Source of the DNA: Thermoflexales bacterium
GTDB taxonomy: Bacteria; Chloroflexota; Anaerolineae; J036; Brachytrichaceae
Assembly (NCBI GenBank): GCA_044235195.1
Contig: JBIIIA010000001.1
Coordinates: 1 to 40,427, forward strand
Direction: 5' to 3'
Length of the DNA: 40,427 nucleotides
The position numbers and the translations under genes are program-made. Below are positions 2,562 through 29,307 of the stretch, piece after piece (the first letter of the stretch is position 1; each line of letters begins with the position of its first letter). Below the pieces are notes generated by a model, which was not told the origin of the DNA, searched no databases, and was given only the letters and a program-made list of their open reading frames with translations.

Positions 2562-2584
2562 GCGAGCGATACGCTACCACAGAA

Positions 2585-2626
2585 GGACGGCGGACGGCGG
2601 ACGGCGGACGGCAGACGGCGGACGGC
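2585..2626. repeat. six tandem copies of heptamer GGACGGC (fifth copy AGACGGC)
   Basis: Read directly: ggacggc x4, agacggc, ggacggc. It lies in the 70-nt spacer between the histidine-kinase stop (2632) and the HAD start (2561). A 17-nt core GGACGGCGGACGGCAGA recurs at 40282..40298. Confidence 0.9.
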
Positions 2627-2631
2627 CGTCG

Positions 2632-3795
2632 TCAGTTCTCCGCGCGCGGGACGGTGAACCAGAAGGTGGTGCCGGCGCCGAGCGTGCTGACGACCCAGAT
2701 GCGCCCGCCGTGCGCTTCGACGATGTGGCGAGCGATGGCGAGCCCCAGGCCGGTGCCGCTGCGGCCGCGGGCGCGGTCGACTTTATAGAAGCGCTCGAAA
2801 ATGCGCGGCAGTTCGTCGGCCGGGATGCCTTCGCCGGTGTCGCGCACGCCGATGCGGATGAAGTCCCCATCTTCGATTTCTGCGCCGACGGTGATGGAGC
2901 CTTTGGCGGTGAATTTGACGGCGTTGTGAATGAGATTGGACAACACGCGTTGAATCTGCGCCGGGTCGATGAGCACACGCAGGCTCGGATCGACGGTCGA
3001 TGTCAGCTGCAGGCCGGCGCGTTCGGCCTGCGGCGACAGACGGGTGAGCACAGCGGCGACGACTTCGTGCAGGTCGATCTCGATGAGGCGCATGGGAAGC
3101 TGGCCGCTCTCGATCTGTGCGAGATCGGAGAGCTCCTGGGTGAGCTGTGTCAGCGCGGTGGTCTGATCATCGATCTGATCGAGCGTGCGCGCGAGCGCGG
3201 CCGGAAGCGGCGTGTCCGTGCGCGCTGCGGCGCGCGCGCCGTCCAGAAGCAGGCGGATCGCCGTGAGCGGCGTGCGCAGCTCGTGGCCGATGTTGGCGAC
3301 GAAGTCGCGGCGAGCGCGGCCGAGTCGCGTCAGCTCGCTGATGTCGCGCAGGACGACCACGGCGCTGGCGCCGCCTTCGAGCAGCGTCGCGCGGCAGCGA
3401 TGCAGCTTGCCGTTGAGCAGCACGTTGCGGGGCAGGTCGAGCTGTTCGGTGAATGCTTCTTCGGCGAGAAGATCGAGCTCGAACGAGCGCGTGCTTTCGA
3501 TCAGGCTGCGCTCGAGCTCGAAGATGCCCATCGTCTGCGCGGCTGCGTTCATCGCCGTGACGCGGTGTGCGTCGTCGATGAAAATCGCGGGGTCGGTCAT
3601 GGCGTCGAAGAGCGCCTGACGCTGCACGTGCGCCGCGTCGCGTTCGGCGAGCGCCTGCGCCAGCTGCTGGCGCTGCCGCAGAAATTCCACGGTGATTTCG
3701 TCCGTGGTGCGCTCGGTGCGACGCAGCCGGACGAGGAGAACGATCGTGGTGATCAGCGCTACGACGAGTGAGACGACGGAAAGTTCGGTGGACAT
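2632..3795 (-). CDS. sensor histidine kinase (N-terminal TM, PAS-like, HisKA, HATPase_c)
   Basis: 387-aa ORF. H-box FVANIGHELRTPLTAI, N-box LSNLIHNAVKFT, G-boxes VRDTGEGI and GTGLGLAIARHIVEAHGG. Single N-terminal TM and no periplasmic domain. Confidence 0.9.
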   Translation of the reverse strand: MSTELSVVSLVVALITTIVLLVRLRRTERTTDEITVEFLRQRQQLAQALAERDAAHVQRQALFDAMTDPAIFIDDAHRVTAMNAAAQTMGIFELERSLIESTRSFELDLLAEEAFTEQLDLPRNVLLNGKLHRCRATLLEGGASAVVVLRDISELTRLGRARRDFVANIGHELRTPLTAIRLLLDGARAAARTDTPLPAALARTLDQIDDQTTALTQLTQELSDLAQIESGQLPMRLIEIDLHEVVAAVLTRLSPQAERAGLQLTSTVDPSLRVLIDPAQIQRVLSNLIHNAVKFTAKGSITVGAEIEDGDFIRIGVRDTGEGIPADELPRIFERFYKVDRARGRSGTGLGLAIARHIVEAHGGRIWVVSTLGAGTTFWFTVPRAEN

Positions 3796-3811
3796 GATGG
3801 GCCGCTCGTCG

Positions 3812-4063
3812 TCAGCGTGTGCGAGAGGACGGCGCCGATCGGCGTCGCATCAACAGCAGGAGTGCGGCGGCGAGTGCGCTGAATGCGAAGGCGACGGCGA
3901 GGAGTGTGGTCGGCGAACGCCGCGCCGCGGCAATCTCGGCATGCATGAGTTCGTCGTGGGCACGACTGACGAAGGCCGGATCGGGCCGCACGGCATCCGT
4001 TCGAACGGCGCGCTGCAGGCGCTGTTCGAGCCATTCGACGTCGTCGGGGGTGAGTCTGGTCAT
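3812..4063 (-). CDS. small single-pass membrane protein, putative anti-sigma factor
   Basis: 83-aa ORF with a 4-nt overlap to the upstream ECF sigma gene. C-terminal TM LLAVAFAFSALAAALLLLM. No zinc-binding HxxxCxxC motif. The call rests on position only. Confidence 0.4.
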   Translation of the reverse strand: MTRLTPDDVEWLEQRLQRAVRTDAVRPDPAFVSRAHDELMHAEIAAARRSPTTLLAVAFAFSALAAALLLLMRRRSAPSSRTR

Positions 4064-4755
4064 GGCTGTGAAATCATTCGCCGTGCGGCGTTCGTAGTAT
4101 TTTCGGGGCTCATCGCCGTGGCATTTCGTTCTTCGTCATCGAGCACTTCGCGCAGCTGCTGCAGTGTGCGATGGTAGAGCGACTTGACTGCACCTTCGCT
4201 GCGATTCATGATCTCGCCGATCTCGGCGTTCTGTTTCTGCTCGACGAACTTGAGCACGATCAGATGCTGTCGTTCTTCGGGCAGCTTGCGGATGGCGCGC
4301 ATGAGACGGATGCGGTCACGCTCGGCGTCGATGTCGTGATCGGCGTCGGAATGCTCCCCCGGATGTGCGTCGATTTCTTCGAAGGGGATCGCCGGATGTC
4401 GGCTGTTGTCGCGATGGAAGTTGGCCACGACGTTGTGCGCGATGCGATACAGCCATGCGGTGAACGGCAGCCCGCGGTCGCTGTAATTGTGAATGTGGCG
4501 CAGCGCGCGCGTGAAGACCTTGGCCGTCAGATCTTCGGCGTCGACGGAAACTCCGACGCGGTAATACACGTAGCGATAGATCGCGGCGACGTGTCGCTGG
4601 TAGAGCGCGCCGAACGCGTCGCGTTCGTGGCGTGCGCGCTGAGCGAGCGCCTGATCGTCGAGCGCATCGAGCGTGTCGAGCGCATCTAAGTCGCAGAGCG
4701 CGACGATGTGCGACGATTCATCGTCTGCGATGGTTCCGATGGATTCCTTGTCCAA
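4060..4755 (-). CDS. ECF-type RNA polymerase sigma-70 family factor
   Basis: Region 2 (FGALYQRHVAAIYRYVYYRV...FTAWLYRIAHNVVANFHRD) and region 4 (LPEERQHLIVLKFVEQKQNAEIGEIMNRSEGAVKSLYHRTLQQLR). The track start at 4755 is a TTG codon, so the true start is uncertain. Confidence 0.85.
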   Translation of the reverse strand: MDKESIGTIADDESSHIVALCDLDALDTLDALDDQALAQRARHERDAFGALYQRHVAAIYRYVYYRVGVSVDAEDLTAKVFTRALRHIHNYSDRGLPFTAWLYRIAHNVVANFHRDNSRHPAIPFEEIDAHPGEHSDADHDIDAERDRIRLMRAIRKLPEERQHLIVLKFVEQKQNAEIGEIMNRSEGAVKSLYHRTLQQLREVLDDEERNATAMSPENTTNAARRMISQP

Positions 4756-4781
4756 CGGGCGGTATTATCGCGGAATCTTCG

Positions 4782-5717
4782 ATGCGTATCTCGATCGTCA
4801 TCCCGAACTGGAACGGCGCGCGGCATCTGCCGGTGTGTCTGCAGGCGCTGCGTGCGCAGACGCTGCCGCCGCATGAAGTGCTGCTGGTCGACAATGCGTC
4901 GGCAGACGATTCTCTGGCGCTGGTTGCGCGCGAATTTCCGGAAGTGCGGGTGATTGCGCTGCCGAAGAATCTGCGCTTTGCGGGCGCCTGCAACGCCGGC
5001 ATTCGTGCGTCGAGCGGCGAGGCCGTGGCGCTGCTGAACAACGACACCGAAGCCGACGTGCACTGGCTCGAACGCGTGGCGGCCTGCTTCGCGGCGCACG
5101 ACGACGCCGGGTTCGTCGCCAGCAAACTGCGCTTGTTCGATCGCCGCGATCGGCTGCACAGCGCCGGCGACTCGTACTCGTCCGCGGGCACGCCCGGCAA
5201 TCGCGGCGTGTGGCAGATCGACGACGGACGCTTCGATGCCGAATATGTGTTCGGCGCGTGCGGTGCAGCATCGGTGTACCGTCGCAGCATGTTGGACGCC
5301 GTCGGCCTGCTGGACGAAGATTTCGAATTTTCGTGCGAGGACGTCGATCTGTCGTGGCGTGCGCAGCTGGCCGGCTATCGCTGCGCATTCGCGCACGATG
5401 CGATCGTGTATCACAAGGTCAGCGCGACGGGCGGCGGCGTGCTCAACAGCTATTACGACGGCCGCAATTTCCTGTGGCTGCTGGTCAAGGACGTGCCCGG
5501 GGAAATTCTGCGCGCGCGCTTCGGTGCGATCGCGGCTTCCCAGATCCGCATCGCGTTCGATGCGCTGCGGGCGTGGCGCGGCCAGGCGGCGCGCAACCGG
5601 CTGAAAGGGCAGCTGGCCGGGCTGCTGGGCATCCCGCGCATGCTGCGCGCGCGGCGCGCGGTGCAGCGCAGCCGCGTCATTTCGCGCGAACAGGTGTGGG
5701 CACTGCTGGATCGGTGA
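4782..5717 (+). CDS. family 2 glycosyltransferase
   Basis: ORF 4632..5717 trimmed to ATG 4782 (MRISIVIPNWNGARHLPVCLQALRAQT...VLLVDNASADDS...LLNNDTE), a typical GT2 N-terminus with a DxD-like NDT/DVD. The upstream codons overlap the divergent sigma gene. Confidence 0.85.
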   Translation: MRISIVIPNWNGARHLPVCLQALRAQTLPPHEVLLVDNASADDSLALVAREFPEVRVIALPKNLRFAGACNAGIRASSGEAVALLNNDTEADVHWLERVAACFAAHDDAGFVASKLRLFDRRDRLHSAGDSYSSAGTPGNRGVWQIDDGRFDAEYVFGACGAASVYRRSMLDAVGLLDEDFEFSCEDVDLSWRAQLAGYRCAFAHDAIVYHKVSATGGGVLNSYYDGRNFLWLLVKDVPGEILRARFGAIAASQIRIAFDALRAWRGQAARNRLKGQLAGLLGIPRMLRARRAVQRSRVISREQVWALLDR

Positions 5718-8156: not shown

Positions 8157-9089
8157 CTACTGCTTCGCTTCCTCGCCCACCTGCGGCGCGGGTGAGGTGG
8201 CGATGCCATCGAGCTTGCGCTTGCGCGCTGCGCGCGAGACGGCGCGGATGATCAGCACGATCGGGGCGATGATCAGCACGAGCACCGGCAGGATGCCGAT
8301 GACGAAATAGATCAGGAAGTCGGCCAGCCCGCGCAGCAGCGTGACGAGCGTGTCGAGCGCGGTCTTGGCGGTGCCGAGCGGACGCCATGCCGGCGCTTCG
8401 ACGGGCTGCGAGGCTGCGTCGGACAACATCTCGACCGAGATGCGCGACAGCGCGGCCGATTCCGAGAGGAACTTCATGCGTCCCTTGATTTGTTCGATCT
8501 GTCCGCGGATCTGGGTGAGCTGATTGAACACGTTGAGCACGTCCTCGGTGCTCTTCGCCTCGTCCATGATCTTCTGCAGGCGCGCCTCGGCGGATTCGAG
8601 GTTCTTGAGCTGCGCGCCGAGGTCGACGAATTCACCGGTGACGTCTTCGCCGCTGCTGGATTCGGCGCGCACCTCGACGGCGAGCTGGCGCAGATCGGTG
8701 AGTGCGGCGTCGAGTTTTTCACTCTTGACGCGCAGCGTGACGTTGCCGCGGATTTCGCCGTCGTAGCGGCTGACGGCCGAAGAGACGACGAAGCCGTCGT
8801 GCTTGGCGGCGACGGCGGCGGCGGCCTCCATTCGGGCGGGCACGTCGTCGACGACCAGCGTCATGTCGGCGTTGCGTACGATGAGGCGTTCGGTGACGGC
8901 GGCGGAATCGGACGCGGCGACGTTGCCGGCCGGCGCGGAGCGCTCCATCATCGGGGCTTCGGCTGCGGGTGCGAAGTCTGGCGACGCCGCCGGCTGCGGC
9001 GCGGCAGCGCCGCAAGCGGTAAGGGAGCCGCACACGATCAGCGTGGCCAGCAGGCCACTCCAGGCGGATTTGCGCGCATCGGTTGTCAT
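8157..9089 (-). CDS. DUF4349-like lipoprotein
   Basis: Start moved from the GTG at 9095 to ATG 9089, which has GGAGG 5 nt upstream. Lipobox LTAC. Then the DUF4349-type pattern (RNADMTLVVDDV..., coiled-coil LKNLESAEARLQKIM, C-terminal TM helices). Confidence 0.7.
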   Translation of the reverse strand: MTTDARKSAWSGLLATLIVCGSLTACGAAAPQPAASPDFAPAAEAPMMERSAPAGNVAASDSAAVTERLIVRNADMTLVVDDVPARMEAAAAVAAKHDGFVVSSAVSRYDGEIRGNVTLRVKSEKLDAALTDLRQLAVEVRAESSSGEDVTGEFVDLGAQLKNLESAEARLQKIMDEAKSTEDVLNVFNQLTQIRGQIEQIKGRMKFLSESAALSRISVEMLSDAASQPVEAPAWRPLGTAKTALDTLVTLLRGLADFLIYFVIGILPVLVLIIAPIVLIIRAVSRAARKRKLDGIATSPAPQVGEEAKQ

Positions 9090-9233
9090 GTTCACCTCCG
9101 GAGCTTCAGATGATTTCGGATCGTTTCGCGGCTGCGTGAACCTTCGTGAGCGATGCAGCCGACGCAGAAGATTGTAGGACGCCTTGGCCTGTGCGTCACG
9201 ACGAGCAGCGGACGAGATGCTGACGTCACGAGG

Positions 9234-10223
9234 CTATTGCAGCGTGACGAGCAGGCCGGCGAGCAGGGCGACGAGGGAGGCGGCGAGCCAGGGCGCGTTG
9301 TCGCGCAGGATGTGCGGACGTGAATCGCCTGCAGCGGCCCGCGCTGCTTCGGCGCTGCGCGCGATCGCGAGGTCGGGAGTGCCGGTGAAGAGCTGCGCCC
9401 GGAACTCGGCGACGTTGACCGGTCGATCGTCGGGGTGCATGGCCATGGCGTCGAGGATGGCCTGTTCGACGGTCGGCGTGAGCGTCGGGTTGATGGCGGT
9501 CGGACGTTTCAGCGCGTCTGGGCGCAGAAACCGCTGCTTGGCTTCCGGCGGCGTGGTGTTCGTGAGCAGGTGGTACAGCGTGGCGCCGAGCGCGTAGAGA
9601 TCGGAACGGCCATCGGTGTGTGCATCGTCCTCACCGTACTGCTCCAGCGGCGTGTAGGCGGCGGTGCCGCGGCCCTGCAGAATCGTCACCGTCTGCGATC
9701 CATCGTCGGAGAGGAGTTTGACGAGGCCGAAGTCGACGAGTTTGATCAGCCCGCTGGGAGCGAGCTTGATGTTGCTGGGCTTGATGTCGCGATGCAGCAC
9801 CGGGTGTTGCTGCGAGTGCATGTATTCGAGCGCGTCGCACAGCTGGCGCGCCCAGCCGAGCACTTCGAACTCCGAGAGAAAGCGGCCGGTGCGGCGCGCC
9901 TCGTCCATGATCTCCTTCAGGTTTTGGCCGGAGACGTAATCCATGACGAGGAAGTCCCAGCCGTCCTCGGAAAAGTAGTCGGAGACCTTGGGCAGGTTCG
10001 GATGATCGAGGCGGGCGAGGATGGCTGCTTCGCGACTGAACTGACGCTGCAGCTCGGCGATGACGTCGGCCTGCATGGCGGCGTCGAAGCGCACGGCTTT
10101 GATCGCGCATTTGCGTCCTTCGAGGCGCATGTCTTCGGCGAGGTAGACCGACCCCATCCCGCCGTGGCCGATCGGCGCCTCGACGCGATAGCGACTGCGC
10201 AATACTGCGCCCTTCGAAAACAT
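9234..10223 (-). CDS. Hanks-type Ser/Thr protein kinase, C-terminal tail anchor, no extracellular domain
   Basis: GHGGMGSVY glycine loop, AIK lysine, HRDIKPSNI catalytic loop, DFG. C-terminal TM WLAASLVALLAGLLVTL. Start set to ATG 10223 (MFSKGAV...) because TACAAT lies exactly 7 nt upstream. ATG 10247 is the alternative. Confidence 0.88.
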   Translation of the reverse strand: MFSKGAVLRSRYRVEAPIGHGGMGSVYLAEDMRLEGRKCAIKAVRFDAAMQADVIAELQRQFSREAAILARLDHPNLPKVSDYFSEDGWDFLVMDYVSGQNLKEIMDEARRTGRFLSEFEVLGWARQLCDALEYMHSQQHPVLHRDIKPSNIKLAPSGLIKLVDFGLVKLLSDDGSQTVTILQGRGTAAYTPLEQYGEDDAHTDGRSDLYALGATLYHLLTNTTPPEAKQRFLRPDALKRPTAINPTLTPTVEQAILDAMAMHPDDRPVNVAEFRAQLFTGTPDLAIARSAEAARAAAGDSRPHILRDNAPWLAASLVALLAGLLVTLQ

Positions 10224-10230
10224 GCAGGAA

Positions 10231-10236
10231 ATTGTA
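10231..10236 (-). promoter_or_regulatory. -10-like hexamer TACAAT, 7 nt upstream of kinase ATG 10223
   Basis: Reverse strand reads TACAAT-ttcctgc-ATG. Confidence 0.45.
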
Positions 10237-10258
10237 GCGGTGCGCATACCCCTCTAGT

Positions 10259-10264
10259 TACAAT
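10259..10264 (+). promoter_or_regulatory. -10-like hexamer TACAAT, 7 nt upstream of FHA-regulator ATG 10272
   Basis: Forward strand reads TACAAT-gcagctg-ATG. It is a mirror arrangement to the kinase promoter 23 nt away. Confidence 0.45.
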
Positions 10265-10271
10265 GCAGCTG

Positions 10272-10937
10272 ATGCAGGACTCTCCGATGCTCATCATCGA
10301 AAACGGCCAACTGGCGGGACAGCGTTGGCTGATGGACTCCGACGTCGTCGTCATCGGGCGTGAGGTCGGGCTGGCCGATCTCTTGCTGCCGGAGCGGCAG
10401 GTGAGCCGGCGCCATGCGAAGATCGAGCGCACGCCCGAAGGATTTATTTTGTCGGATCTGGACAGCAAGAACGGCACGTTTCTAAATGGGCGTGAGGTGA
10501 AGGAGCCGCAGCGGCTGCAGGACGGCGATGAAATTCAGATCGCATTGTGCGTGAAAATTGCGTTCGTCGGCAGCGATGCTACTGCTCCGCTGAGCGCCCG
10601 CCCGATCAGCCGGGCGATGCGGCCGGTGGTGCGCGGTGTGCGCATCGACAAAGAGGGTCGGCGGGTGTATTTGGCGGAGCAGGAGCTGGATCCGCCGTTG
10701 AGCCTGCAGCAGTATCGCCTGCTCGAGCTGTTGATCGAAGCGAAGAACGCGCTGGTATCGCGCCACGACATCGTCGAGAAGGTGTGGGAAGGTGAAAATT
10801 CCTTCGGCGTGAGTGAACAGGCGATCGATGCGCTGGTGCGTCGCCTGCGCGATCGCCTGGCGGAGCGCGACCCCGATCACGAGTACATCGTGACGGTGCG
10901 CGGCCACGGTTTGCGTTTCAACAATCGGTTCAATTAA
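10272..10937 (+). CDS. FHA domain fused to OmpR/PhoB-type winged-helix DNA-binding domain (no receiver domain)
   Basis: ORF 9435..10937 trimmed; the upstream part is antisense to the kinase. FHA signature VVIGRE...RQVSRRHAKIE...LSDLDSKNGTFLNGREV. C-terminal Trans_reg_C-like LSLQQYRLLELLIEAKNALVSRHDIVEKVW...IDALVRRLRDRL...IVTVRGHGLRF. Alternative ATGs at 10263 and 10287. Confidence 0.85.
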   Translation: MQDSPMLIIENGQLAGQRWLMDSDVVVIGREVGLADLLLPERQVSRRHAKIERTPEGFILSDLDSKNGTFLNGREVKEPQRLQDGDEIQIALCVKIAFVGSDATAPLSARPISRAMRPVVRGVRIDKEGRRVYLAEQELDPPLSLQQYRLLELLIEAKNALVSRHDIVEKVWEGENSFGVSEQAIDALVRRLRDRLAERDPDHEYIVTVRGHGLRFNNRFN

Positions 10938-10939
10938 TT

Positions 10940-11866
10940 GTGTGGCGTCGACTGGCTGCGGCGATTCCGGCGCTCGCGCTGATTCATCTGCTCGGCTTCG
11001 CGTACGCTCTGTCGGCGATGCGAGTGCACGAGCAGCGCAGTCCGTTCGGGTCCCCGGGTGAAGGATCACTTATTGCCGAAGTGCGCGCGCACATCGACGA
11101 CGTGCTGCGCGGCGATTTCGGGGATCTTCCGCGCAGCCAGGGCGCGGTGTCGGACGTCACTGTTGCGGCGCTCGGTCGCAGCATGCTGGTGCTCGGCCCG
11201 GCGTTCGCGGTGAGTGCTTTCGTCGGACTTTATCTGGGTGCTGCGGCTGCTCGGCAGAATCCGACGCGCCTCGCCGGATGGCTTTTTCCCGTGGCCGTGC
11301 TGCTGCAGTCGCTGCCTTCTTTTTACATCGGCGCGTTGCTGACGGCTGGGCTGCTTGCGCTGGAATGGGCTGATGTTTCCGTGCAAGGGAACTGGATCTG
11401 GCCGGTGCTGGTGCTGGCGGCGCGGCCGACGGTGCAGGTGGCCCAGTTCGTCGCCAGCCTGATCATGGCGGAATCCGACAAGCAATACGTCGTCACCGCG
11501 CGGGGCGTCGGTCATTCCTTCGGCAGTGCGCGACGGGTGCACGTATTTCCGAATATTGCCGCGTCGGTCGTCGGCTGCCTGGCTGCGGCGTTTCGGCTGT
11601 CGGTCGCAGAACTCGTCGTGGTCGAATGGCTTTTCGACTGGCCCGGCATCGGACGACTGATGGGGATGGCGCTGATCGTGCCGCGCCGCACCGATGCTCT
11701 GGCGCCTTTCTTTTTACATCCTGAACTGACCGCGCTCGTGTTCACCGCGCTGGCTTTTCTTTTCATCGTCGCCGACGTCGTCGCGCGTGCGTCGACGAAG
11801 GTCGTCGATCCGCGGCTGCGCACGCCGCTCGAATCGGCTGCGAAGAACGGGAGGCTCTCGACGTGA
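10940..11866 (+). CDS. ABC transporter permease, DppB/OppB-like
   Basis: 308-aa ORF with a GTG start 2 nt after the regulator stop. Multi-TM. GDFGDLPRS segment and the EAA-like loop ESDKQYVVTARGVGHSFGSARRVHVFPN. Confidence 0.8.
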   Translation: MWRRLAAAIPALALIHLLGFAYALSAMRVHEQRSPFGSPGEGSLIAEVRAHIDDVLRGDFGDLPRSQGAVSDVTVAALGRSMLVLGPAFAVSAFVGLYLGAAAARQNPTRLAGWLFPVAVLLQSLPSFYIGALLTAGLLALEWADVSVQGNWIWPVLVLAARPTVQVAQFVASLIMAESDKQYVVTARGVGHSFGSARRVHVFPNIAASVVGCLAAAFRLSVAELVVVEWLFDWPGIGRLMGMALIVPRRTDALAPFFLHPELTALVFTALAFLFIVADVVARASTKVVDPRLRTPLESAAKNGRLST

Positions 11867-14055
11867 AGATGCGCAATGCTGCGCTGGTGAGCGGCGCTAT
11901 TCTGACGTCGGTGTGGTGTGCGGTAGCGTTGTTCGGTGCAGACCTCGCGCCGCGCAGCCCGACCGATTTCAACTACATCGCGGTCGTCGGCGATCGGTTC
12001 ATCGCACCGCCGTTTCCTGCCTTCGTCACGGCGGAATTCCCGCTCGGCTCGGATTCATTCGGGCGCGACACGCTGAGCCGCTTGCTGTGGGCGGTGCGGC
12101 CGACGCTGCTGCTGGCGTTCAGCATCGGCGCACTGCGCGTCGTCATCGGCGCGCTGCTCGGAGTGGCGGCGGGCTGGTTCGACGGCCGCATCGGGCGCGC
12201 GCTCGATGCGGCGGCGAGTGGCGCAGTGTCGCTGCCGGTGCTGCTCGTTGCACTGCTGGTCATCGCCGGCCTGCCAGTGCAGCTCGGCGCCGCAGCATTC
12301 TTCCTCGGCCTGACGATCACGGGCTGGGCGGAAACGGCGCAGTTCAGCGCCGACCAGACGCGCATCGTCCGGCGTGAAAAATTCATCGAGGCGGCGCGCG
12401 CGCTCGGGGCATCCGAGATGCGGATCGCACGGCGGCATGTGTGGCGGCAGCTGGCTCCGATGCTGCGGCTGATCTTCATCGTGGAAACGAGCGGCGTGCT
12501 CATGGCGATTGCAGCGCTGGGCTTTCTCGGCTATTTCGTCGGCGGGGCGAACTGGATCATGATCACCGATTTCGAAGCCCAGCGCATGGCCGGTGCGCCG
12601 GAGCTGGCGGAGATGTTGTCCAGCGCTGTGCGGTCGCGCGACGCTGCGCAGATCGGCATCGTCGGGGGGACGACGGGGCTGATCGTGCTCGGGCTGCGGC
12701 TGTTGGGAGAAGGGCTGCAGCAGCGGCTGACATCGGAGAAAAGCCGGCGCAGCGCAGTGGCGCGCACGGTGACCGATTTCGTGCAGTCCCAGCAGGATCG
12801 CCTGTCGGAGTCACTGTCACAGCGACGCATTCGCATACGTGTGGCCATCGGAATCGGTGTGACGTCGATCGCGCTGGCGATTGGGCTGGCGGCGCGAACG
12901 ATGCTGGATGAGCCCGTGCCGCCGCCGCTGGCGGTGACAGGGGGGCATGTCTGGGCCAGCGCGCGTCGTGATGCGGCGGGCAGCCGACGCGCGGCCGGGG
13001 ATCTGGCGGCGGGAGAGATGCGCATCGCGTGGGAGCGCACGCCGGGCGGCCGGCTGGGAGGCGTGGCCGTGGGACGGGACGGAACGATGTACGTGACCGA
13101 CCTCGATGGAAAGCTGCATGCACTCGATGCCGAGGGCCGCCTGCGATGGAGCGCGGCGCTGGACGAGTCGCCGGTCGGTGCGCCGGGATTGAACGCTCGT
13201 GGGGAGATTGCGGTGGCCGACGTCGCCGGCGCAGTGACGGTGTTCGACGGATCGGGCGTGCAGCTGCGGCGCACGACGATCGACGCCGGCCGGCGTGCCA
13301 TTTCCGGACCGGTGTACGACGATGACGGCAACAGCTATGCGGCGTTGGAGGGCATGCTCGGCTCGATCGATGCGCAGGGTGGTGTGCGCTGGCGTGCACA
13401 GTTGCCGTACGCGTATTTTCAGCCTGCGCTGCGCGTCAGCGACGGATTCATCTTTTTCAAGGACATGGCGTTTTCTGCGCGCAGCGGTGCGGTGTTGCTG
13501 AAGGAGTCGCGCGACGACCTCGATCAATTCGTCACGGGTGTGGACGGCGGCGTGTATTTGCTGTCGCAGTCGGCGCTGCTGGCGTGGCGGCGTGACGGTG
13601 AAAATGTGTCGCTTGCGCGCGTGGCGCAGCTGGATTGGGCGAAGGAATTTCCGGGTCGGATCGCCATGGATGCCGTGGTGTGGTTCGACGGCGGTATTTG
13701 GCTGCAAGTCCCCGGAGGCATGAACAGCACGCGCATCATCTGGCTCGATGGCGCTGGAGGGCTGTCGGGCGACGTCGCGCTGCCGTATGCGAACGCGAGC
13801 GTGATTGCCGTCGACGAACGTGGTGTGCAGGCGATCTGCGGTGAAGTCGATCGCGTGCGCGTGCGCTGCGACGGTCTGCCCCCGCGTGCCACTGCGCCGA
13901 TGTGGTCGGTGGAATTCGCAGTCGAACCGATTGCCGGCGATCGATATGGCGATGCGATGGTGGCCGGCGGCGCGCTCGTCGGCGATCGGCTGATCGTCGC
14001 CACGCGCACGGGGAAGATCGTGGCGATCGAACGTGAGCGGCGCGGGGAGCCGTGA
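11863..14055 (+). CDS. ABC transporter permease (DppC/OppC-like) fused to an extracytoplasmic PQQ-like beta-propeller domain
   Basis: 730-aa ORF with a 4-nt overlap to the upstream permease. N-terminal half has PLGSDSFGRDTLSRLLW and EKFIEAARALGASEMRIARRHVWRQL permease motifs. An extra TM (VAIGIGVTSIALAIGLAA) follows. Then about 380 aa of repeats such as GTMYVTDLDGKLHALDAEGRLRWSA, GEIAVADVAGAVTVFDGSG and DRLIVATRTGKIVAIE. Confidence 0.8.
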   Translation: MKMRNAALVSGAILTSVWCAVALFGADLAPRSPTDFNYIAVVGDRFIAPPFPAFVTAEFPLGSDSFGRDTLSRLLWAVRPTLLLAFSIGALRVVIGALLGVAAGWFDGRIGRALDAAASGAVSLPVLLVALLVIAGLPVQLGAAAFFLGLTITGWAETAQFSADQTRIVRREKFIEAARALGASEMRIARRHVWRQLAPMLRLIFIVETSGVLMAIAALGFLGYFVGGANWIMITDFEAQRMAGAPELAEMLSSAVRSRDAAQIGIVGGTTGLIVLGLRLLGEGLQQRLTSEKSRRSAVARTVTDFVQSQQDRLSESLSQRRIRIRVAIGIGVTSIALAIGLAARTMLDEPVPPPLAVTGGHVWASARRDAAGSRRAAGDLAAGEMRIAWERTPGGRLGGVAVGRDGTMYVTDLDGKLHALDAEGRLRWSAALDESPVGAPGLNARGEIAVADVAGAVTVFDGSGVQLRRTTIDAGRRAISGPVYDDDGNSYAALEGMLGSIDAQGGVRWRAQLPYAYFQPALRVSDGFIFFKDMAFSARSGAVLLKESRDDLDQFVTGVDGGVYLLSQSALLAWRRDGENVSLARVAQLDWAKEFPGRIAMDAVVWFDGGIWLQVPGGMNSTRIIWLDGAGGLSGDVALPYANASVIAVDERGVQAICGEVDRVRVRCDGLPPRATAPMWSVEFAVEPIAGDRYGDAMVAGGALVGDRLIVATRTGKIVAIERERRGEP

Positions 14056-14090: not shown

Positions 14091-15596
14091 TTACGGCCGG
14101 CGCACGATGTACACCGGGTCGATGCCGATGTTCCAGTATGTGCTGCCACCGGCCTGATACGCGGGGGACAGTGCGTTGCCGTCGATGTCGTAGGCGGCGA
14201 TGAGCTTCGCCGTGGGGGCGTTGATCGTGTAAATATCATCCGTCCTCGCCCATACGATGTGCACCTGCTCATTACTGGAGCGGCGCAGCGCGAAAGCTTC
14301 AACTGCATCCGGATAGCCGGACGCCGTCGACAGATAAGTGGTGTTGCGGGTGAGGTTCGAGAAAGTGCGGAGCGCAGAATATGCGGGTCGCGGGTTGCCC
14401 ATCCAGTCGTACAGGCCTCCCTGACGCCAGCCGCCATTGTCGATCACGTACCATACGAAACTTTCGACATCGGCGTTCATCGCACGCAGTGGAGCCTTGA
14501 CGGCATAGTGCGCCTGTGCGATGAAGAATGCTTCCTCTGTCGGCTTGCAGTAGGGAGGCGGATTCTCCGTGTCATTCACGCACATCAGCGCCGATTCGTT
14601 GAGGTGCAGTGGTTTGGTCAGGCCGTACTCGGCGAGGATGCCACGTAGAAAATTGGCTTTGCCGACGATGCCGCCCTTATTAGGGTCAGTGTTCGCCACA
14701 GTGGCGTCGAAGCCGATCAACGAGTGGTCAATGGAAACTTTTCCTTGGTAGGGTGGGTAGAAATGGTACGGCACTGCATCGAAGTACAGACCGGCGCCGG
14801 CTTCGAGGATGCCTTTGAAAAACAGCTCCGGTCGTCCGTACCCCGGGCGGGTTTCATTTTCACGATCGAGCAGCAAGCCGCCGATCCATACTTGTGCATG
14901 CCGATCCGCAGCCCGTATACGAGGTGTGACGACTTTCAACATTTCGCCATAGTGTTCGCCACCATAGAACGGATCTGCGATGTTTCCCCAGCATCCGTAG
15001 ACCATGTCCTTCTTGTCGCCGAACCAATAAGGATCGACGTCCGGCTCATTGCCGAGCTCCCAGATCTTCACGTTGTATGGTGCGGCGCTGTATCGGTTGA
15101 CGAGCGCGACCACATACTCGGCGAATGCCTCGAATTTGTCCGCGCGGATCGCTGTGCAGCTATTCGTCGGATCGATGCTGGCCCATCTGGGATGGTCGTC
15201 GACGACCAGAATGGGGTGAATTCCGGCGGCATTCAGTGCGATCAATTCCTGCTCGAGCGTAAAGGCCGGAGTCCAGTCGATCGGATCGCCTTCCTTTGGT
15301 TGCATGGCGCGCCACGAGATGCGTCCGTTCAGACGCATGCGATCGACGCCGAGATCGAGCGTGCGGGTGAGCATTCGTGTTCCCGGTGTGATGGGGGCGT
15401 TGGCTTCGGCGCTGATGTATGGTCGCCATGGATATCCCGATGTCACGATGGGAACGTATGTGGACTGTGTTGCCTCCGTCCGTGCGGCATCCTGCGGCGC
15501 CACGCCTTGGCTGATGCTCGTGCGAGGTGCTGCGAACAGCACGAGCACGGCGACCAGCGCCGCGAACAGGGAATTCGTCCGATGGGCGTAATTCAA
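14091..15596 (-). CDS. secreted glycoside hydrolase, clan GH-A TIM-barrel (GH5/GH39-like)
   Basis: ORF 14091..15755 trimmed to TTG 15596, which has GAGGA 6 nt upstream and yields a signal peptide (NYAHRTNSLFAALVAVLVLFAAP). Catalytic-acid-type motif IWELGNEPD. Visibly lower GC than its neighbours. Confidence 0.7.
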   Translation of the reverse strand: MNYAHRTNSLFAALVAVLVLFAAPRTSISQGVAPQDAARTEATQSTYVPIVTSGYPWRPYISAEANAPITPGTRMLTRTLDLGVDRMRLNGRISWRAMQPKEGDPIDWTPAFTLEQELIALNAAGIHPILVVDDHPRWASIDPTNSCTAIRADKFEAFAEYVVALVNRYSAAPYNVKIWELGNEPDVDPYWFGDKKDMVYGCWGNIADPFYGGEHYGEMLKVVTPRIRAADRHAQVWIGGLLLDRENETRPGYGRPELFFKGILEAGAGLYFDAVPYHFYPPYQGKVSIDHSLIGFDATVANTDPNKGGIVGKANFLRGILAEYGLTKPLHLNESALMCVNDTENPPPYCKPTEEAFFIAQAHYAVKAPLRAMNADVESFVWYVIDNGGWRQGGLYDWMGNPRPAYSALRTFSNLTRNTTYLSTASGYPDAVEAFALRRSSNEQVHIVWARTDDIYTINAPTAKLIAAYDIDGNALSPAYQAGGSTYWNIGIDPVYIVRRP

Positions 15597-15631
15597 TTCG
15601 ATTCCTCGCTTCGGCGGCGTCTTGCAGCCAG

Positions 15632-18466
15632 TTATTTCGGCTCGGTGCACGGATGCGTGACGCCGAACCTTGCGGTTCCCTGCGGCAGCGTGAGCGACAT
15701 TACGTCGTCGCTGCCGCGGAGCGATTCTACGGATACGCGTCCGCGCTCCGTCCATGCCGACGCCACGTTCGCTGACCGCGGCATTCGCAGCTGTGCCGGC
15801 GCGTCGAGCCGCACGGTGAGTTCGGTGGCTTCACACGAGAGCCGCTTCCACGACACGTCGATGCTGCCGCCGTCGATCGGCACAGAACCATTAGCATAGT
15901 TCAAAACGTCCAGCGCTGGGGTGATGCTGAGATTGCCGGTTCGGTCGCGAGCGATGCCGAGCACGCGCGTGGAGAGGAACCACGTCGGCGCCGAACCCCA
16001 GCCGTGTGAGAGCGCGCTGGAGTAACGGTCGTCGGCGTCGAACGTCTCCCACCACGTGGTGGCGCCGCGGTCGAGCATGGCGCCGTACAAGCGACGGACG
16101 AGCGACAGGCCGTCGGCGGTGCGATCGGCGTTGGCCAGCCCCTCGAGGATCCAGTACGTGCCGTACGGCCCGAAGCCAGGAGCGCGCGGATCGGGGCCGA
16201 CGCGGGCGAGCAGGCAGTCGGCGACGGCGGTGCGCGATTCCGCGGGCGGCACGTCGTAGGCCAGCGCCCAGCCCTGTGCGTGCACGGTGGGGATGCCGCG
16301 GATGCCGGCGTAGATCGTCGAGGCGTAGCAGCCTGATCCGGCGTCGTAGAGCTGCGCGTGAATCGTGGTGCGCAGCTGGCTCGCTTCGAGATTCCATTGC
16401 TCGGCGTCGGCGCTTTTGCCGAGGCGCGCGGCGATGCGGGCGGCCGCGCGCAGCGTGCCGTAATACATGGCGTTGACCGGCGTGCTCAGACCGGCGGTGC
16501 CGCGGCCGCCGGTGCCGACGTCTGCGTAGAAGGCTGGGAAATCGATGAGCGCCGACTCGGACCAGTGCAGGTTGGGCACGTCGATCAATGTCGATCCGGC
16601 GGCGCGGTAGCCGGCGAGGAAGCGCAGGAAATCCTGCATCTTCGGATAGATGCGCTGCACGAATCCTTCCTCTGCGCTGCGCACAAGATACGAATCGAGG
16701 CTCTGCACCCAGAGCATGCCGTAATCGAGCAGCAGCGTGCCGTCGTTGTTCGGCGCGAACGCCGGCGGCCGGCCGTCGACGACGCCGTCGGCAAAGGCCT
16801 GCAGGCCGCGCCGCAGCAGCGCCGTGTCGGCGAAGGCGACTTCGTTGACGCGATCGACGACGAACGCATCGCCCCACCACTGCGCGCGTTCGCGCCACGG
16901 GTCGGCGTAAGCGTCGACCATGTTGATGCGCGCGGTGTTCACGCCGGTCTGCCAGATCGCGTCGAGCTGCGCATCGGCCGAGAACGAGCCGGTCTGCACA
17001 GCCGGGTAGCGTTCGTCTTCGAAGCGCACGTCGGCGAGCATGACCGGGCCGCCCCATGCGATCACCACGACGTAGCGGCCGGTGCGGGCGTCGATGGTGT
17101 GCACGGAGCGCTGCGTTCCGTCGAGCGTCCATGAATCGACCTGGCTCCATTCGCTGTGCAGCGGGCCGGGGTGCGGCAGGATCCAATCGGCGCCGGGCTG
17201 CAGTCGTTCGTCCCAGCCGACGTCGACGATCGTCCCGGACGGGCCGGAGACGTCGAAGATCAGGCGGCCGTGGCGCACCTGCCCGAGGTCGAAGAGCACA
17301 TAGGATGCGGCGCTGGGCAGGCGGTACGTATGCGGCGAGGAGGTGTCGATTTGAAAAATATCGGCGTCCGGCTGGGCGAGAGCGGCGCGGATGCCCGGGG
17401 CAGGGATGACCGATGCTGCCGGCGGAGCTACGGCAGCGTCGTCGAACGGCGCGTGCAGCAGTGCTGCGCGATCGACGAGCCCGTCGATGCGATGCTGGCC
17501 GGGGTCGACGAACGCTGTTGCAGAGTAGACGCCGGGGCGCGCGGGATCGGCGTTCCACGCGAGCGGCGCAGCATTCAGCGTCGCGGTGGGCGGCGCCGCA
17601 CCGAGGTCGCTGCCGAAGGCATCGATGACGATCGTTTGTGCGTTCGACACGGAGAAGGCGGCCGAGTCTTCCTTCGATTGCAGCAAGGTGGCGTACGGCG
17701 AAATGCGGCCGGCGTCGTGCAGGGCCGGGCGCATTTCGGAGTGATCGAGGAAGGGAATCGAGCGTGGGGCGTATGTCGGCGTTGCCTCGAGCGCGGGGAG
17801 GACGGCGGCGGCGGGCCAGGTGGAATCGTTGAAGTCCGGCGCCTGCCAGTTCGAGGGCAGGCTGCGCAGGTCGAGAATTTCGCTCGGCCCGATCAGGTCC
17901 CAGAGATGGATGCGGCGCGACGCGTACGACCATGCGTCCGGCGCGATCGCGCGCCACGATTCATTCGAGCGCGCGACGATCTGCGTGCGCCCGGCTGGAT
18001 CGCGCCCTTCGATGTGCGCGCGCAGCTCCGGCCGCAGCGATTCGGCGCGGCGTGTGTTCGGCGCCCACTGCACGAGCACGGCGATGACGTGTCGCCCGGG
18101 CGCGAGCGTGCCGAGATCGTGTCGGTCGTATTCGCGGCGCACGCGCGAAAAGCGCGCCGGGCCGCGGCCGACGAAGGCACCGTCGATCCACAGTTCGTAG
18201 CGCGTGTCGGCGAAGATGTGCAGCTGTGAAACGTCGAGCGTTTCGGTCAGGTCGAATGTCGTGCGCAGCAGGGCGATGTCGTTTCCGTCGACGGTTTCCT
18301 GGGCATGCCACACGGCGATGTCGTCCGCGATGAATTCATACGCAGCGACGAACGGGACATAGACGATCGTGCTCGACGAAGTGGCGATGTTCGGCTGCGC
18401 AGTTCTGGGTGTGAAGGATGGGAGGAGGGCAACCAGCGCAGCGAGAAAAGAAGCGAGCTTTCCCAT
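15632..18466 (-). CDS. GH78-like alpha-L-rhamnosidase family protein (six-hairpin glycosidase)
   Basis: 944-aa ORF with a signal peptide. N-terminal YELWIDGAFVGRGPARF resembles the rhamnosidase N-domain. DPWRERAQWWGD resembles the DxPxRE..W.GD motif. C-terminal GATTWWETF...SLSHGWGSAP. Confidence 0.65.
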   Translation of the reverse strand: MGKLASFLAALVALLPSFTPRTAQPNIATSSSTIVYVPFVAAYEFIADDIAVWHAQETVDGNDIALLRTTFDLTETLDVSQLHIFADTRYELWIDGAFVGRGPARFSRVRREYDRHDLGTLAPGRHVIAVLVQWAPNTRRAESLRPELRAHIEGRDPAGRTQIVARSNESWRAIAPDAWSYASRRIHLWDLIGPSEILDLRSLPSNWQAPDFNDSTWPAAAVLPALEATPTYAPRSIPFLDHSEMRPALHDAGRISPYATLLQSKEDSAAFSVSNAQTIVIDAFGSDLGAAPPTATLNAAPLAWNADPARPGVYSATAFVDPGQHRIDGLVDRAALLHAPFDDAAVAPPAASVIPAPGIRAALAQPDADIFQIDTSSPHTYRLPSAASYVLFDLGQVRHGRLIFDVSGPSGTIVDVGWDERLQPGADWILPHPGPLHSEWSQVDSWTLDGTQRSVHTIDARTGRYVVVIAWGGPVMLADVRFEDERYPAVQTGSFSADAQLDAIWQTGVNTARINMVDAYADPWRERAQWWGDAFVVDRVNEVAFADTALLRRGLQAFADGVVDGRPPAFAPNNDGTLLLDYGMLWVQSLDSYLVRSAEEGFVQRIYPKMQDFLRFLAGYRAAGSTLIDVPNLHWSESALIDFPAFYADVGTGGRGTAGLSTPVNAMYYGTLRAAARIAARLGKSADAEQWNLEASQLRTTIHAQLYDAGSGCYASTIYAGIRGIPTVHAQGWALAYDVPPAESRTAVADCLLARVGPDPRAPGFGPYGTYWILEGLANADRTADGLSLVRRLYGAMLDRGATTWWETFDADDRYSSALSHGWGSAPTWFLSTRVLGIARDRTGNLSITPALDVLNYANGSVPIDGGSIDVSWKRLSCEATELTVRLDAPAQLRMPRSANVASAWTERGRVSVESLRGSDDVMSLTLPQGTARFGVTHPCTEPK

Positions 18467-27382: not shown

Positions 27383-28396
27383 ATGCGCATACGAAATCTC
27401 GGCGCGACCGGCCTCAAGGTCACGGAAGTGTGTCTCGGAACCATGACGTTCGGCAACCAGGCCGATGAAGCGACGTCCTTTCAGATCCTCGATGCGGCGG
27501 AGGCGCGCGGCGTCAATTTCATCGACACGGCCGACGCCTATCCGCTCGGCCGGAACTGGGAGAGCGCCGGAGCGACAGAAGAGATCATCGGAAACTGGAT
27601 GCGCGAGCGCAAATCGCGCGATCGCATCGTGCTGGCGACGAAGTGTCGCGGCGCGATGGGGCCCGGCCCGAACGACGAGGGCCTCAGCCGCCGGCACGTC
27701 ATCGCCGCCTGTGAGGCCAGCCTGCGTCGCCTGAAGACCGACTACATCGACCTGTATCAGGCGCACGCGCCCGATCCGAGCACGCCGATCGAGGAGACGC
27801 TGCGCGCGTTCGACGACCTGGTGCGCGCCGGCAAGGTGCGCTACGTCGGCTGCTCGAACTTCCCGGCGCATCAGCTCGGCGACGCGATCTGGACGAGCCG
27901 CCTGCACGGACTGGCGCGCTTCGACAGCGCGCAGCCGCGCTACAACATGCTCTTCCGCATGATCGAGGACGAAATTCTGCCGCTGTGCCGCACGCACGGC
28001 ATCGGCGTGATCGTCTACAACCCGCTGGCCGGCGGCATGCTGACCGGGCGCTATCGCGGCATGCGTGAAGTGCAGGCCGGCACGCGCTTCGCGCTCGGCA
28101 ACAACAGCGGCGCGCTGTATCAGAAGCGCTACTGGAACGATGCCGTGTTCGATGCGATCGACCGCTTGTCGAATTTCCTGGCGGCGCGCGGCAAGAACCT
28201 GACGCACGTGGCGCTCAGCTGGGTGCTGCAGCAGGACGGCGTGACGAGCGCCATCGTCGGCGCCAGCCGGCCGGAACAGCTTGAGGACAGCCTGCAGGGC
28301 GTGAGCCTGGCGCTCGACGCCGAAGAGCTCGCGGCGTGCGACGAAATCTGGTTCGAACTGCCGCGCGAGCGCGACCCGCAGGTGGCGCGTCGCTGA
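27383..28396 (+). CDS. aldo/keto reductase
   Basis: 337-aa ORF. LGTMTFG, INFIDTADAYPLG, DYIDLYQAH and KVRYVGCSNF are typical AKR signatures. Confidence 0.9.
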   Translation: MRIRNLGATGLKVTEVCLGTMTFGNQADEATSFQILDAAEARGVNFIDTADAYPLGRNWESAGATEEIIGNWMRERKSRDRIVLATKCRGAMGPGPNDEGLSRRHVIAACEASLRRLKTDYIDLYQAHAPDPSTPIEETLRAFDDLVRAGKVRYVGCSNFPAHQLGDAIWTSRLHGLARFDSAQPRYNMLFRMIEDEILPLCRTHGIGVIVYNPLAGGMLTGRYRGMREVQAGTRFALGNNSGALYQKRYWNDAVFDAIDRLSNFLAARGKNLTHVALSWVLQQDGVTSAIVGASRPEQLEDSLQGVSLALDAEELAACDEIWFELPRERDPQVARR

Positions 28397-28468
28397 CGCA
28401 TGACGGCGCGGCGCCGCCGCATCTTCGGCCCGACGTCGCGCCCTCTTCGTGCTCATCCGTATGTTCAA

Positions 28469-28517
28469 GGCTGAGTCGCCATGCCCCGGCCGGAGGCCGG
28501 GGCATGGCGACTCAGCC
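28469..28517. terminator. perfect 23-bp GC-rich hairpin with 3-nt loop
   Basis: ggctgagtcgccatgccccggcc-gga-ggccggggcatggcgactcagcc, 73 nt downstream of the AKR stop. Only a weak T-run (gagttta) follows. Confidence 0.55.
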
Positions 28518-28578
28518 GGAGTTTACGGATTGGCTCTTAATGCGAATGCGGCATGATTCCGGCCGGAAATTAAAAACA

Positions 28579-29307
28579 ATGAGTACGAGACATCTGGACC
28601 TTCCCGACCTTCTGAATGCGCGCGACCTCGGCGGCCTGCCGACGCGCTCCGGCGGCGCGACGCGCTGGCGTTCCTTCGTGCGCACCGACGGGCTGCACAA
28701 CCTGAACGAAGTCGGCCGTGCGGCGCTGCACGGCTACGGCGTGCGCACGGTGATCGACCTGCGCATGCCGCACGAGCTCGAGCAGCTGCCGAACCCGCTG
28801 CAGAGCGACCCGAACATGAATTTCTTGCACGTGTCGCTGCTCGGCGCCGTGGGCGACGAGGTCTTCGAGCGCAACAAGCATCTGCCGCCGCACTCCGAAT
28901 GGGCGCTGGTGGTGCTGGAGGAATCGAAGGAAAACTTCCGCCGCGTTTTCTCCGGCATCGCCGATGCGCCGGAGGGCGTGGTGCTGTTTCACTGCTACGC
29001 CGGCAAAGACCGCACCGGCCTGGTGGCCGATCTGCTGCTGGATCTGGCCGACGTGCACGACGACCACATCGTCGACGACTACGACCTGAGCAACGCGCGT
29101 CTGTGGAAGCACGTCGAAGCGGTGAGCGACACCATCGAAGACCCGACGGCGCGTGCGCGTGCCGTCGACGCGTGGACGGTGCGCCGCGAGACCGCGGAAA
29201 CCGTGCTGTCGCACGTGCGCGCGCGCTACGGCGGCGCGGCCGGCTATCTGAAGGCCGTCGGCCTGAGCGACGAGGAAATCGCAGCCGTGCGTCGCCGGTT
29301 GCTATGA
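28579..29307 (+). CDS. protein tyrosine/serine phosphatase (Y_phosphatase3-like)
   Basis: ORF 28336..29307 trimmed to ATG 28579 (MSTRHLDLPDLLNARDLGG). CX5R active site HCYAGKDRTG. Confidence 0.8.
   Translation: MSTRHLDLPDLLNARDLGGLPTRSGGATRWRSFVRTDGLHNLNEVGRAALHGYGVRTVIDLRMPHELEQLPNPLQSDPNMNFLHVSLLGAVGDEVFERNKHLPPHSEWALVVLEESKENFRRVFSGIADAPEGVVLFHCYAGKDRTGLVADLLLDLADVHDDHIVDDYDLSNARLWKHVEAVSDTIEDPTARARAVDAWTVRRETAETVLSHVRARYGGAAGYLKAVGLSDEEIAAVRRRLL

Follow-up and report, generated by a model that had tools for sequence, protein, structure and literature searches.

Which signalling system is encoded where a gene for a Hanks-type Ser/Thr kinase stands back to back with a gene for a regulator that joins an FHA domain to a DNA-binding domain, a winged helix-turn-helix (wHTH) of the OmpR/PhoB type? 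The question is raised by a 40,427-nucleotide (nt) stretch of DNA from a Thermoflexales bacterium of the Chloroflexota (GenBank assembly GCA_044235195.1, contig JBIIIA010000001.1, positions 1 to 40,427 of the forward strand), which is called the window below. The original prediction, made from the letters of this DNA without database searches, had described the gene pair as a minimal pathway from kinase to DNA in which recognition of phosphothreonine (pThr) replaces the phosphorylated aspartate, and had placed its probable first target in the regulator's own operon of permease-like genes. The present analysis supports a pathway between the kinase and the regulator and speaks against the permeases as its target. 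We tentatively favour the view that the two genes form a self-contained cassette, made of a tail-anchored kinase with no sensor and its cognate transcription factor, in which the FHA domain takes the place of the receiver. The coordinates of all features are collected in Table 1.

Domains and family of the regulator

Both domains were found by Pfam in the one polypeptide, FHA with an E-value of 4.1e-20 (72.4 bits against a cut-off of 20.7) and Trans_reg_C with 2.1e-16 (60.2 bits against 26.2), and neither Response_reg nor BTAD matched the regulator in this search. Since its N-terminus is an FHA domain and there is no Response_reg match, the protein is not a response regulator, which agrees with the reading of the original prediction that the FHA domain is joined directly to the winged helix with no receiver. 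The complete FHA signature read at that time (GR, SRRH and SKNGTFLNG) is present as well, and the pThr-binding set G29, R30, S45, R46, H48, S65, N67, G68, T69 and N72 is the same in 85 of 85 orthologs. Moreover, G29, R30, H48, S65 and N67 are unchanged in all of 63 diverged representatives of the family, which are 33–55% identical to the window regulator. In the wHTH, the arginines R191, R193 and R210 of the recognition helix and the wing are unchanged among the orthologs. Both the E-values of the domains and the conservation of these residues are far above chance level.

The AlphaFold2 (AF2) model of the regulator, for which an alignment of the 63 diverged homologs was the input, has a mean predicted local distance difference test (pLDDT) value of 91.4 and contains two confident domains (pLDDT >90), with pLDDT 91–98 over most of the FHA beta-sandwich, while the linker is modelled weakly (mean pLDDT 62 for residues 101–110 and 51 for residues 111–120). 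According to DSSP, the wHTH of the model has strands at residues 123–126 and 131–134, helices at 145–156, 164–171 and 182–199, and hairpin strands at 206–209 and 213–216, that is, the topology expected for this fold (a beta-sheet, three helices and a C-terminal hairpin). The nearest folds found by Foldseek in the PDB are the FHA domains of GarA and OdhI (root-mean-square deviation 1.1–1.5 Å, identity 33–34%, target-normalised TM-score 0.86–0.94). All hits were matches of a single domain, with a query-normalised TM-score of at most 0.42 among the 50 matches listed. In the sequence search of the PDB, the FHA half led to OdhI, GarA, Rv1747 and FhaA, and the wHTH half to the DNA-binding domains of HP1043-like proteins, ArlR, PhoB, RegX3 and WalR. 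Thus, neither Foldseek nor the PDB sequence search found a counterpart of the full architecture among solved structures. The NCBIfam models divide the protein in the same way: those of response regulators (RpaB, PhoB and others) match residues 114–220 only and stay far under their cut-offs (51 bits against 296 for PhoB), and those of OdhI and FhaB cover only the N-terminal 90 residues.

Compared with known systems, the regulator resembles several and belongs to none of them. With the OmpR/PhoB regulators it shares the C-terminal DNA-binding fold, a length of about 220 amino acids (aa), the two-domain layout and an N-terminal phospho-dependent module, but it has neither a receiver nor a phospho-acceptor Asp, and its apparent partner is a Ser/Thr kinase instead of a histidine kinase. 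GarA and OdhI have the nearest FHA domains, and both are kinase substrates that dock through them on the autophosphorylated enzyme (PDB 6i2p, PknB-GarA); however, they have no DNA-binding domain, whereas the window regulator has a C-terminal wHTH and carries its conserved Thr on the C-terminal side of the FHA domain. The OdhI model NF041660 gave 63.3 bits against a cut-off of 200, so that membership in the GarA/OdhI group is not supported.

An arrangement like that of the regulator, an N-terminal FHA domain followed by a winged-helix DNA-binding domain, also occurs in the eukaryotic FOXK/Fkh factors, from whose combination of FHA and forkhead the FHA domain has its name; however, the winged helix of the forkhead proteins has no kinship with the wHTH of OmpR and PhoB, and the likeness is one of convergent architecture and not of homology over the full protein. 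The closest known system is PknH-EmbR of Mycobacterium tuberculosis. The genes pknH and embR are adjacent, and PknH has an extracellular sensor domain, which the window kinase lacks. In both cases a Hanks kinase is found with a factor that contains an FHA domain and a winged helix of the Trans_reg_C class, and in EmbR the FHA domain is required for the interaction with the kinase (PMC4601284; PMC6213207). However, EmbR is a protein of 388 aa with the order wHTH-BTAD-FHA (PDB 2fez), whereas the window regulator is a protein of 221 aa with the order FHA-linker-wHTH and no BTAD domain, a contrast already drawn in the original prediction. The two align by the C-terminal FHA domain of EmbR alone (residues 26–91 of the query to 308–372 of the chain). 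Since the PDB matches of the wHTH fall in the PhoB/ArlR class and EmbR is aligned by its FHA domain alone, the wHTH is, by these alignments, of the response-regulator type and not of the SARP/EmbR type. Thus, the regulator falls outside the EmbR group in its reversed order, in the absence of BTAD and in its wHTH subclass. In addition, output proteins with an FHA domain as their input module include DgcB of Bdellovibrio (FHA-GGDEF), the crystal structures of which contain the FHA domain bound to the phosphorylated N-terminal peptide of the same protein (titles of PDB 6hc1 and 6hbz), and ArnA, an archaeal protein with a zinc finger and an FHA domain, which is a transcriptional repressor under the control of Ser/Thr kinases (PMC5007285; PMC10470591). 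DgcB and ArnA differ from the regulator in their output or DNA-binding domains and in their taxa, and their sequence kinship with it is limited to the FHA domain.

The architecture did not prove to be unusual. All of the best 120 homologs (73–95% identical) have FHA and Trans_reg_C, and the named members among them belong to Thermoflexales, Ca. Roseilinea, and unspecified Anaerolineae or Chloroflexota, which puts the window in the same lineage. Among clusters at 50% identity (1.84 billion representatives) there are 78 matches below 1e-30, and about 70 of the best 150 matches are full-length proteins of 200–245 aa with the same domain layout. A pattern scan of the GTDB species genomes gave at least 576 confirmed relatives; the best 80 of these are from Chloroflexota wherever a lineage is named, mostly from Anaerolineae, where they are distributed among Thermoflexales, Anaerolineales, Ardenticatenales, Promineifilaceae and Aggregatilineales. 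One record of the same scan is labelled Patescibacteria. Furthermore, a profile built from the most diverged members matched 1,440 clusters (90% identity) below 1e-20, and the few names on these diverged clusters are Chloroflexaceae, Chloroflexi, Anaerolineae and two metagenome-assembled genomes labelled Actinomycetota, the binning of which is unconfirmed. Judging from these matches, the FHA-wHTH architecture is not rare and represents a large, uncharacterised family, mostly of Chloroflexota. Its members are already in the public databases under generic names such as ‘FHA domain-containing protein’ and ‘DNA-binding response OmpR family regulator’. Others, including P0004, P0017 and P0353, are labelled ‘predicted component of type VI protein secretion system’ or ‘Oxoglutarate dehydrogenase inhibitor’, and these labels look like annotation errors caused by the FHA domain alone. 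Full-text literature searches, the coverage of which leaves out most subscription journals, found no study of a protein with an N-terminal FHA domain and a C-terminal OmpR-type wHTH. The original prediction had stated that an architecture both common and already functionally characterised would speak against it; the architecture proved to be common, and no functional study of it was found.

The kinase and its linkage to the regulator

The product of the divergent gene matches Pkinase with an E-value of 2.6e-37 (129 bits against a cut-off of 31.7), and the glycine loop, the Lys, the alpha-C Glu, HRD-x-K-x-x-N and DFG are unchanged across 65 kinase orthologs. The activation loop has the motif T-[IV]-T-[VI], and in 63 of the 65 orthologs the first Thr is followed by V or I at the +3 position. 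By analogy with T171 and T173 of PknB, T178 and T180 are likely to be autophosphorylation sites, and they are candidate docking sites for the FHA domain. At the C-terminus, the helix WLAASLVALLAGLLVTL is followed by Q and the stop codon, and a terminal transmembrane helix is present in 63 of the 65 orthologs with a median of one residue beyond it. Because the helix ends the protein with only about one residue after it, the kinase is classed from its sequence as tail-anchored without an ectodomain, as had been stated in the original prediction, and this property is conserved. It is unlike the receptor kinases of the PASTA/PknB type, which have an extracellular sensor after the transmembrane helix, where the window kinase has a single residue. 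The NCBIfam Stk1/PASTA model, which matches the kinase domain only, scored 205 bits where its cut-off is 450.

The window kinase was used as a tblastn query against 84 related loci, for 78 of which the flank on the upstream side is 1.3 kb or longer. An orthologous kinase gene (49–69% identity) was found directly upstream and divergent in 63 of these 78 loci, which according to the record titles span Thermoflexales, Anaerolineales, Ardenticatenales, Promineifilaceae and Aggregatilineales. Between pairs of loci, the identity of the kinases rises with that of the regulators (r = 0.76); genes that are inherited together should show such a correlation, and by itself it does not prove an interaction. 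Moreover, in all six loci sampled from the broader family a Ser/Thr kinase gene adjoins the FHA-wHTH gene: it is a short divergent ortholog in two of them, a 506-aa kinase encoded on the same strand in one, and a kinase with a PQQ beta-propeller in three. In the last three (L087, L090 and L092) the gene for the PQQ-propeller kinase of 700–800 aa (about 1600–4004) overlaps the regulator gene (4001–4648) by 4 nt. By their gene layout, these loci are a second type of cassette of the same family in which the two genes are predicted to be translationally coupled. Because the pairing persists across kinase types and orientations, which is the strongest evidence available, a functional link from the kinase to the regulator is quite probable, and in this respect the pathway proposed in the original prediction gained support.

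Signal transfer and its alternatives

A candidate for the phosphorylated residue of the regulator lies in the linker. The consensus of the orthologs is F-V-G-S-x-A-T104-x-P-L, with T104 and P106 in 85 of 85 sequences and L107 in 79 of 85, and among the diverged representatives T104 is kept in 58 of 63 and L, V, I or F occurs at the +3 position in 43 of 63. The sequence pThr-x-x-(I/L/V) is a typical ligand of bacterial FHA domains. T104 is always exactly five residues past F98, the last conserved residue of the FHA domain, whereas its distance from the wHTH can be anything between 24 and 51 residues. In FHA domains the termini are opposite the pThr-binding loops. In the mechanism that we propose, the kinase would autophosphorylate the unchanged Thr residues of its activation loop (T-[IV]-T-[VI]), and the FHA domain of the regulator would dock at the membrane on the pThr-x-x-V/I epitope thus formed, in the way in which GarA binds to PknB (PDB 6i2p). 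The kinase would then phosphorylate T104 (A-T-x-P-L), and the FHA domain of a second protomer would read pT104 in trans, because a tether of five residues and termini facing away from the pocket favour this over reading within one protomer. The head-to-tail dimer could pair two wHTH domains on repeated DNA sites and thus change transcription, in a manner like the dimerisation of PhoB by phospho-Asp. This particular route through a T104 trans-dimer, every step of which is inferred, is one that we put forward with slightly less assurance than the cassette itself. A wider idea, which is possible and should be taken with more caution, is that the Chloroflexota carry a widespread and undescribed system parallel to the two-component systems, in which the Hanks kinase would correspond to the histidine kinase and the FHA::wHTH protein to the response regulator, the linker pThr read in trans would replace dimerisation by phospho-Asp, and paralogous cassettes would have either tail-anchored or PQQ-propeller kinases.

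Several observations weigh against the proposed cassette and its mechanism. No PP2C-type Ser/Thr phosphatase, which might serve for a reset step, is encoded among the scanned open reading frames (ORFs) of the window, and no conserved direct or inverted repeat that might be the operator of the wHTH occurs in the divergent spacers of 65 loci. T104 could be a structural or phospho-independent contact instead of a phosphosite, and the argument for reading in trans over reading in cis is taken from the general topology of FHA domains. Furthermore, no kinase is encoded within 6 kb in 15 of the 78 loci, among them those of Thermoflexus and one of Roseilinea; therefore, adjacency is not obligatory. 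The same 15 loci would be expected if the adjacency had no signalling meaning, that is, if the FHA domain worked independently of phosphorylation or read another kinase and the neighbouring kinase had other substrates, and bacterial Ser/Thr kinases are often pleiotropic (PMC4601284). However, the pairing survives extensive rearrangement of the flanks, and different kinases accompany the paralogous regulators at all six loci that were sampled, where at three the reading frames of the two genes overlap, so that this explanation appears very improbable. It is also rather unlikely that the pair is a local switch with its primary target in the regulator's own operon including the ABC permeases, as the original prediction had it. 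The regulator stop is only 2 nt from the start of the first permease gene, which in turn shares 4 nt with the second one, and a scan of 9100..11100 found no terminator-like site. Because of the short gap and the absence of a predicted terminator, co-transcription of regulator and permeases is probable in this genome. However, tblastn found these permeases in none of the 84 related loci, and according to the gene and Pfam listing they are absent from the contig of P0012, the regulator of which is 94% identical; this contig shares the upstream synteny (DUF4349, MOFRL and PALP) and has a convergent gene of 512 aa in the position of the permeases. In a relative with an 89% identical regulator the downstream region is different again, and among the orthologs the gene 3' of the regulator is mostly convergent; in 27 of 73 loci, for example, it encodes a CpXC protein. 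The regulator itself is 75–95% identical across genomes with these differing downstream genes. Thus, the permease pair looks like a lineage-specific, recent insertion outside the conserved module and cannot be the conserved function of the regulator.

Two further explanations accept the phosphorylated kinase or the linker Thr and differ in what the FHA domain does with them. If the FHA domain simply bound the autophosphorylated, anchored kinase, the regulator would be kept off the DNA at the membrane (or freed upon dephosphorylation), and its own phosphorylation would not be the key event. Such sequestration would be well served by the tail anchor kept in nearly all kinase orthologs, which with essentially no ectodomain provides a fixed membrane site, by an activation-loop T-x-T with V or I at +3 that suits FHA recognition, and by a pThr pocket unchanged across the regulator orthologs. 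It is nevertheless unlikely, since it leaves the unchanged T104-x-P-L at its fixed spacing unexplained, and since the catalytic relationship seems to be conserved in paralogous cassettes with very different kinase architectures. An autoinhibition in cis after the fashion of GarA and OdhI, where pT104 would bind the FHA domain of its own chain and turn DNA binding off (or on) with no dimer formed, we regard as improbable. In GarA and OdhI the phospho-Thr motif is on the N-terminal side, about 25–30 residues from the FHA domain and thus far enough out for cis binding, whereas T104 always follows the last FHA strand by five residues, a tether that, judging from FHA topology, would be too short to reach the pocket. 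On the other hand, GarA and OdhI are the closest relatives of the regulator FHA domain in both sequence and structure, and they use intramolecular binding between pThr and FHA according to literature cited in PMC4601284.

Divergent promoters and flanking genes

When the locus is aligned with its nearest relatives, the conserved start of the regulator falls at ATG 10272 and that of the kinase, the longest ORF of which reaches 10247, at ATG 10223. Two other starts of the regulator were considered and dropped: the database call at 10263 (224 aa), since the start motif ATG-(N)-Q-D-S/A-P and the -10 box favour 10272, and M6 at 10287, which is preceded by AGGA, since the start motif and the -10 box are conserved at 10272. 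The resulting spacer is identical with the interval 10224..10271 named in the original prediction and agrees with the distance of about 50 nt given there.

Table 1. Positions of the kinase and regulator genes, of their parts and of the adjacent permease genes in the window
Feature	Position	Strand	Remarks
Hanks-type Ser/Thr kinase, predicted tail-anchored	9234..10223	-	329 aa from conserved ATG; Pkinase and ortholog alignment
C-terminal transmembrane helix WLAASLVALLAGLLVTL	9240..9290	-	single residue Q, then stop (translation)
Activation-loop T-V-T (T178, T180; 329-aa numbering)	9684..9692	-	both Thr in 65 of 65 orthologs
Divergent spacer	10224..10271		48 nt; two back-to-back -10 boxes inside
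TACAAT, putative -10 box of the kinase gene	10231..10236	-	7 nt before ATG 10223
TACAAT, putative -10 box of the regulator gene	10259..10264	+	7 nt before ATG 10272
FHA::wHTH regulator	10272..10937	+	221 aa (translation, Pfam, AF2)
FHA domain	10347..10541	+	PF00498 envelope, residues 26–90; modelled fold about 5–99
Linker motif F-V-G-S-D-A-T104-A-P-L	10563..10592	+	candidate phospho-acceptor Thr; ortholog alignment
OmpR/PhoB-type wHTH DNA-binding domain	10632..10925	+	residues 121–218; Pfam PF00486 at 143–216
ABC permease genes, Opp/Nik-type	10940..11866 and 11863..14055	+	second fused to PQQ-type beta-propeller

The length of the spacer is 41–155 nt in seven close relatives, greater in one further relative, and up to about 350 nt overall. 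In all seven of the close loci used for comparison (L001, L005–L008, L085 and L086) a hexamer TAnnnT lies 6–7 nt before the kinase start and 7–8 nt before the regulator start, and in the close loci, those of the Thermoflexales/Roseilinea clade, no Shine-Dalgarno sequence precedes either of the divergent genes. The distance of only 6–8 nt between the -10 boxes and the starts, together with the absence of a Shine-Dalgarno sequence, suggests that the mRNAs of kinase and regulator are leaderless in this clade. In the window the two -10 boxes lie back to back and only 22 nt apart, so that competition between the promoters for RNA polymerase is possible. A generic sigma-70 scan of 9100..11100 gave one promoter-like site, 5' of the DUF4349 gene; the leaderless promoters, which have a -10 box only, escaped it. 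In the more distant Anaerolineales loci, AAGGAGG occurs instead as the ribosome-binding site, and the promoter of the kinase gene has the consensus form TTGACA-17-TATGAT. The recurrent motifs of the spacers that were tried as operator elements were identified as parts of expression signals: TGTCAAG is the reverse complement of the TTGACA -35 box, 17 nt from a TATGAT-type -10 box, of the kinase gene in loci of the Anaerolineales type, ATTATAAT and TAnAAT are -10 boxes, and AAGGAGG is the ribosome-binding site.

The two permeases gave BPD_transp_1 matches with E-values of 2e-19 and 5e-11, and the second gave a PQQ_2 match with 8.5e-12. The C-terminal PQQ propeller of the latter, of about 350 aa, is an unusual fusion, and the pair is an orphan, accompanied in its vicinity by neither an ATPase gene nor one for a substrate-binding protein. 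When this propeller was compared with the one that serves as sensor in the paralogous kinases, the similarity was that of generic repeats only. On the far side of the kinase there is a DUF4349 gene (8157..9095, minus strand) with its own promoter-like site GTGACG-17-TACAAT (9199..9171); it stays near the pair in relatives with an 89–94% identical regulator and not in the distant loci. Across the related loci, the next gene past the kinase often encodes a glycoside hydrolase family 3 enzyme and is convergent (29 of 51 loci). Farther upstream in the window there are genes for a histidine kinase with HisKA and HATPase_c (2632..3795, minus strand), an extracytoplasmic function (ECF)-type sigma factor (4060..4755, minus strand) and a GT2 glycosyltransferase (4632..5717, plus strand), and the arrangement at 2632..5717 is syntenic with that of L085, which has a 94% identical regulator. 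On the other side, at 14091..18466 of the minus strand, a 554-aa ORF with no Pfam match adjoins a 944-aa alpha-L-rhamnosidase-like gene; their longest ORFs overlap at 15632..15755, so that one of the two start codons is uncertain. In addition, a gene of the tyrosine phosphatase family (Y_phosphatase3) is located at 28336..29307 on the plus strand.

To our knowledge, signalling from bacterial Ser/Thr kinases to transcription has mostly been described for pleiotropic kinases that act on ordinary regulators, and PknH-EmbR is the single paradigm that involves an FHA domain. The cassette described here looks dedicated, with one kinase and one regulator kept together across a bacterial class and with paralogous versions elsewhere in the family. 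It raises the long-standing question of whether pThr-FHA recognition can replace the receiver domain in driving an OmpR/PhoB-type DNA-binding domain, and this question is directly testable on two small, soluble proteins because the architecture is minimal and there is a single obvious candidate phosphosite. An answer would also give a first access to the control of genes in the Anaerolineae, a class that is abundant in wastewater, sediments and hot springs and for which nearly all genomes in this survey were metagenome-assembled.

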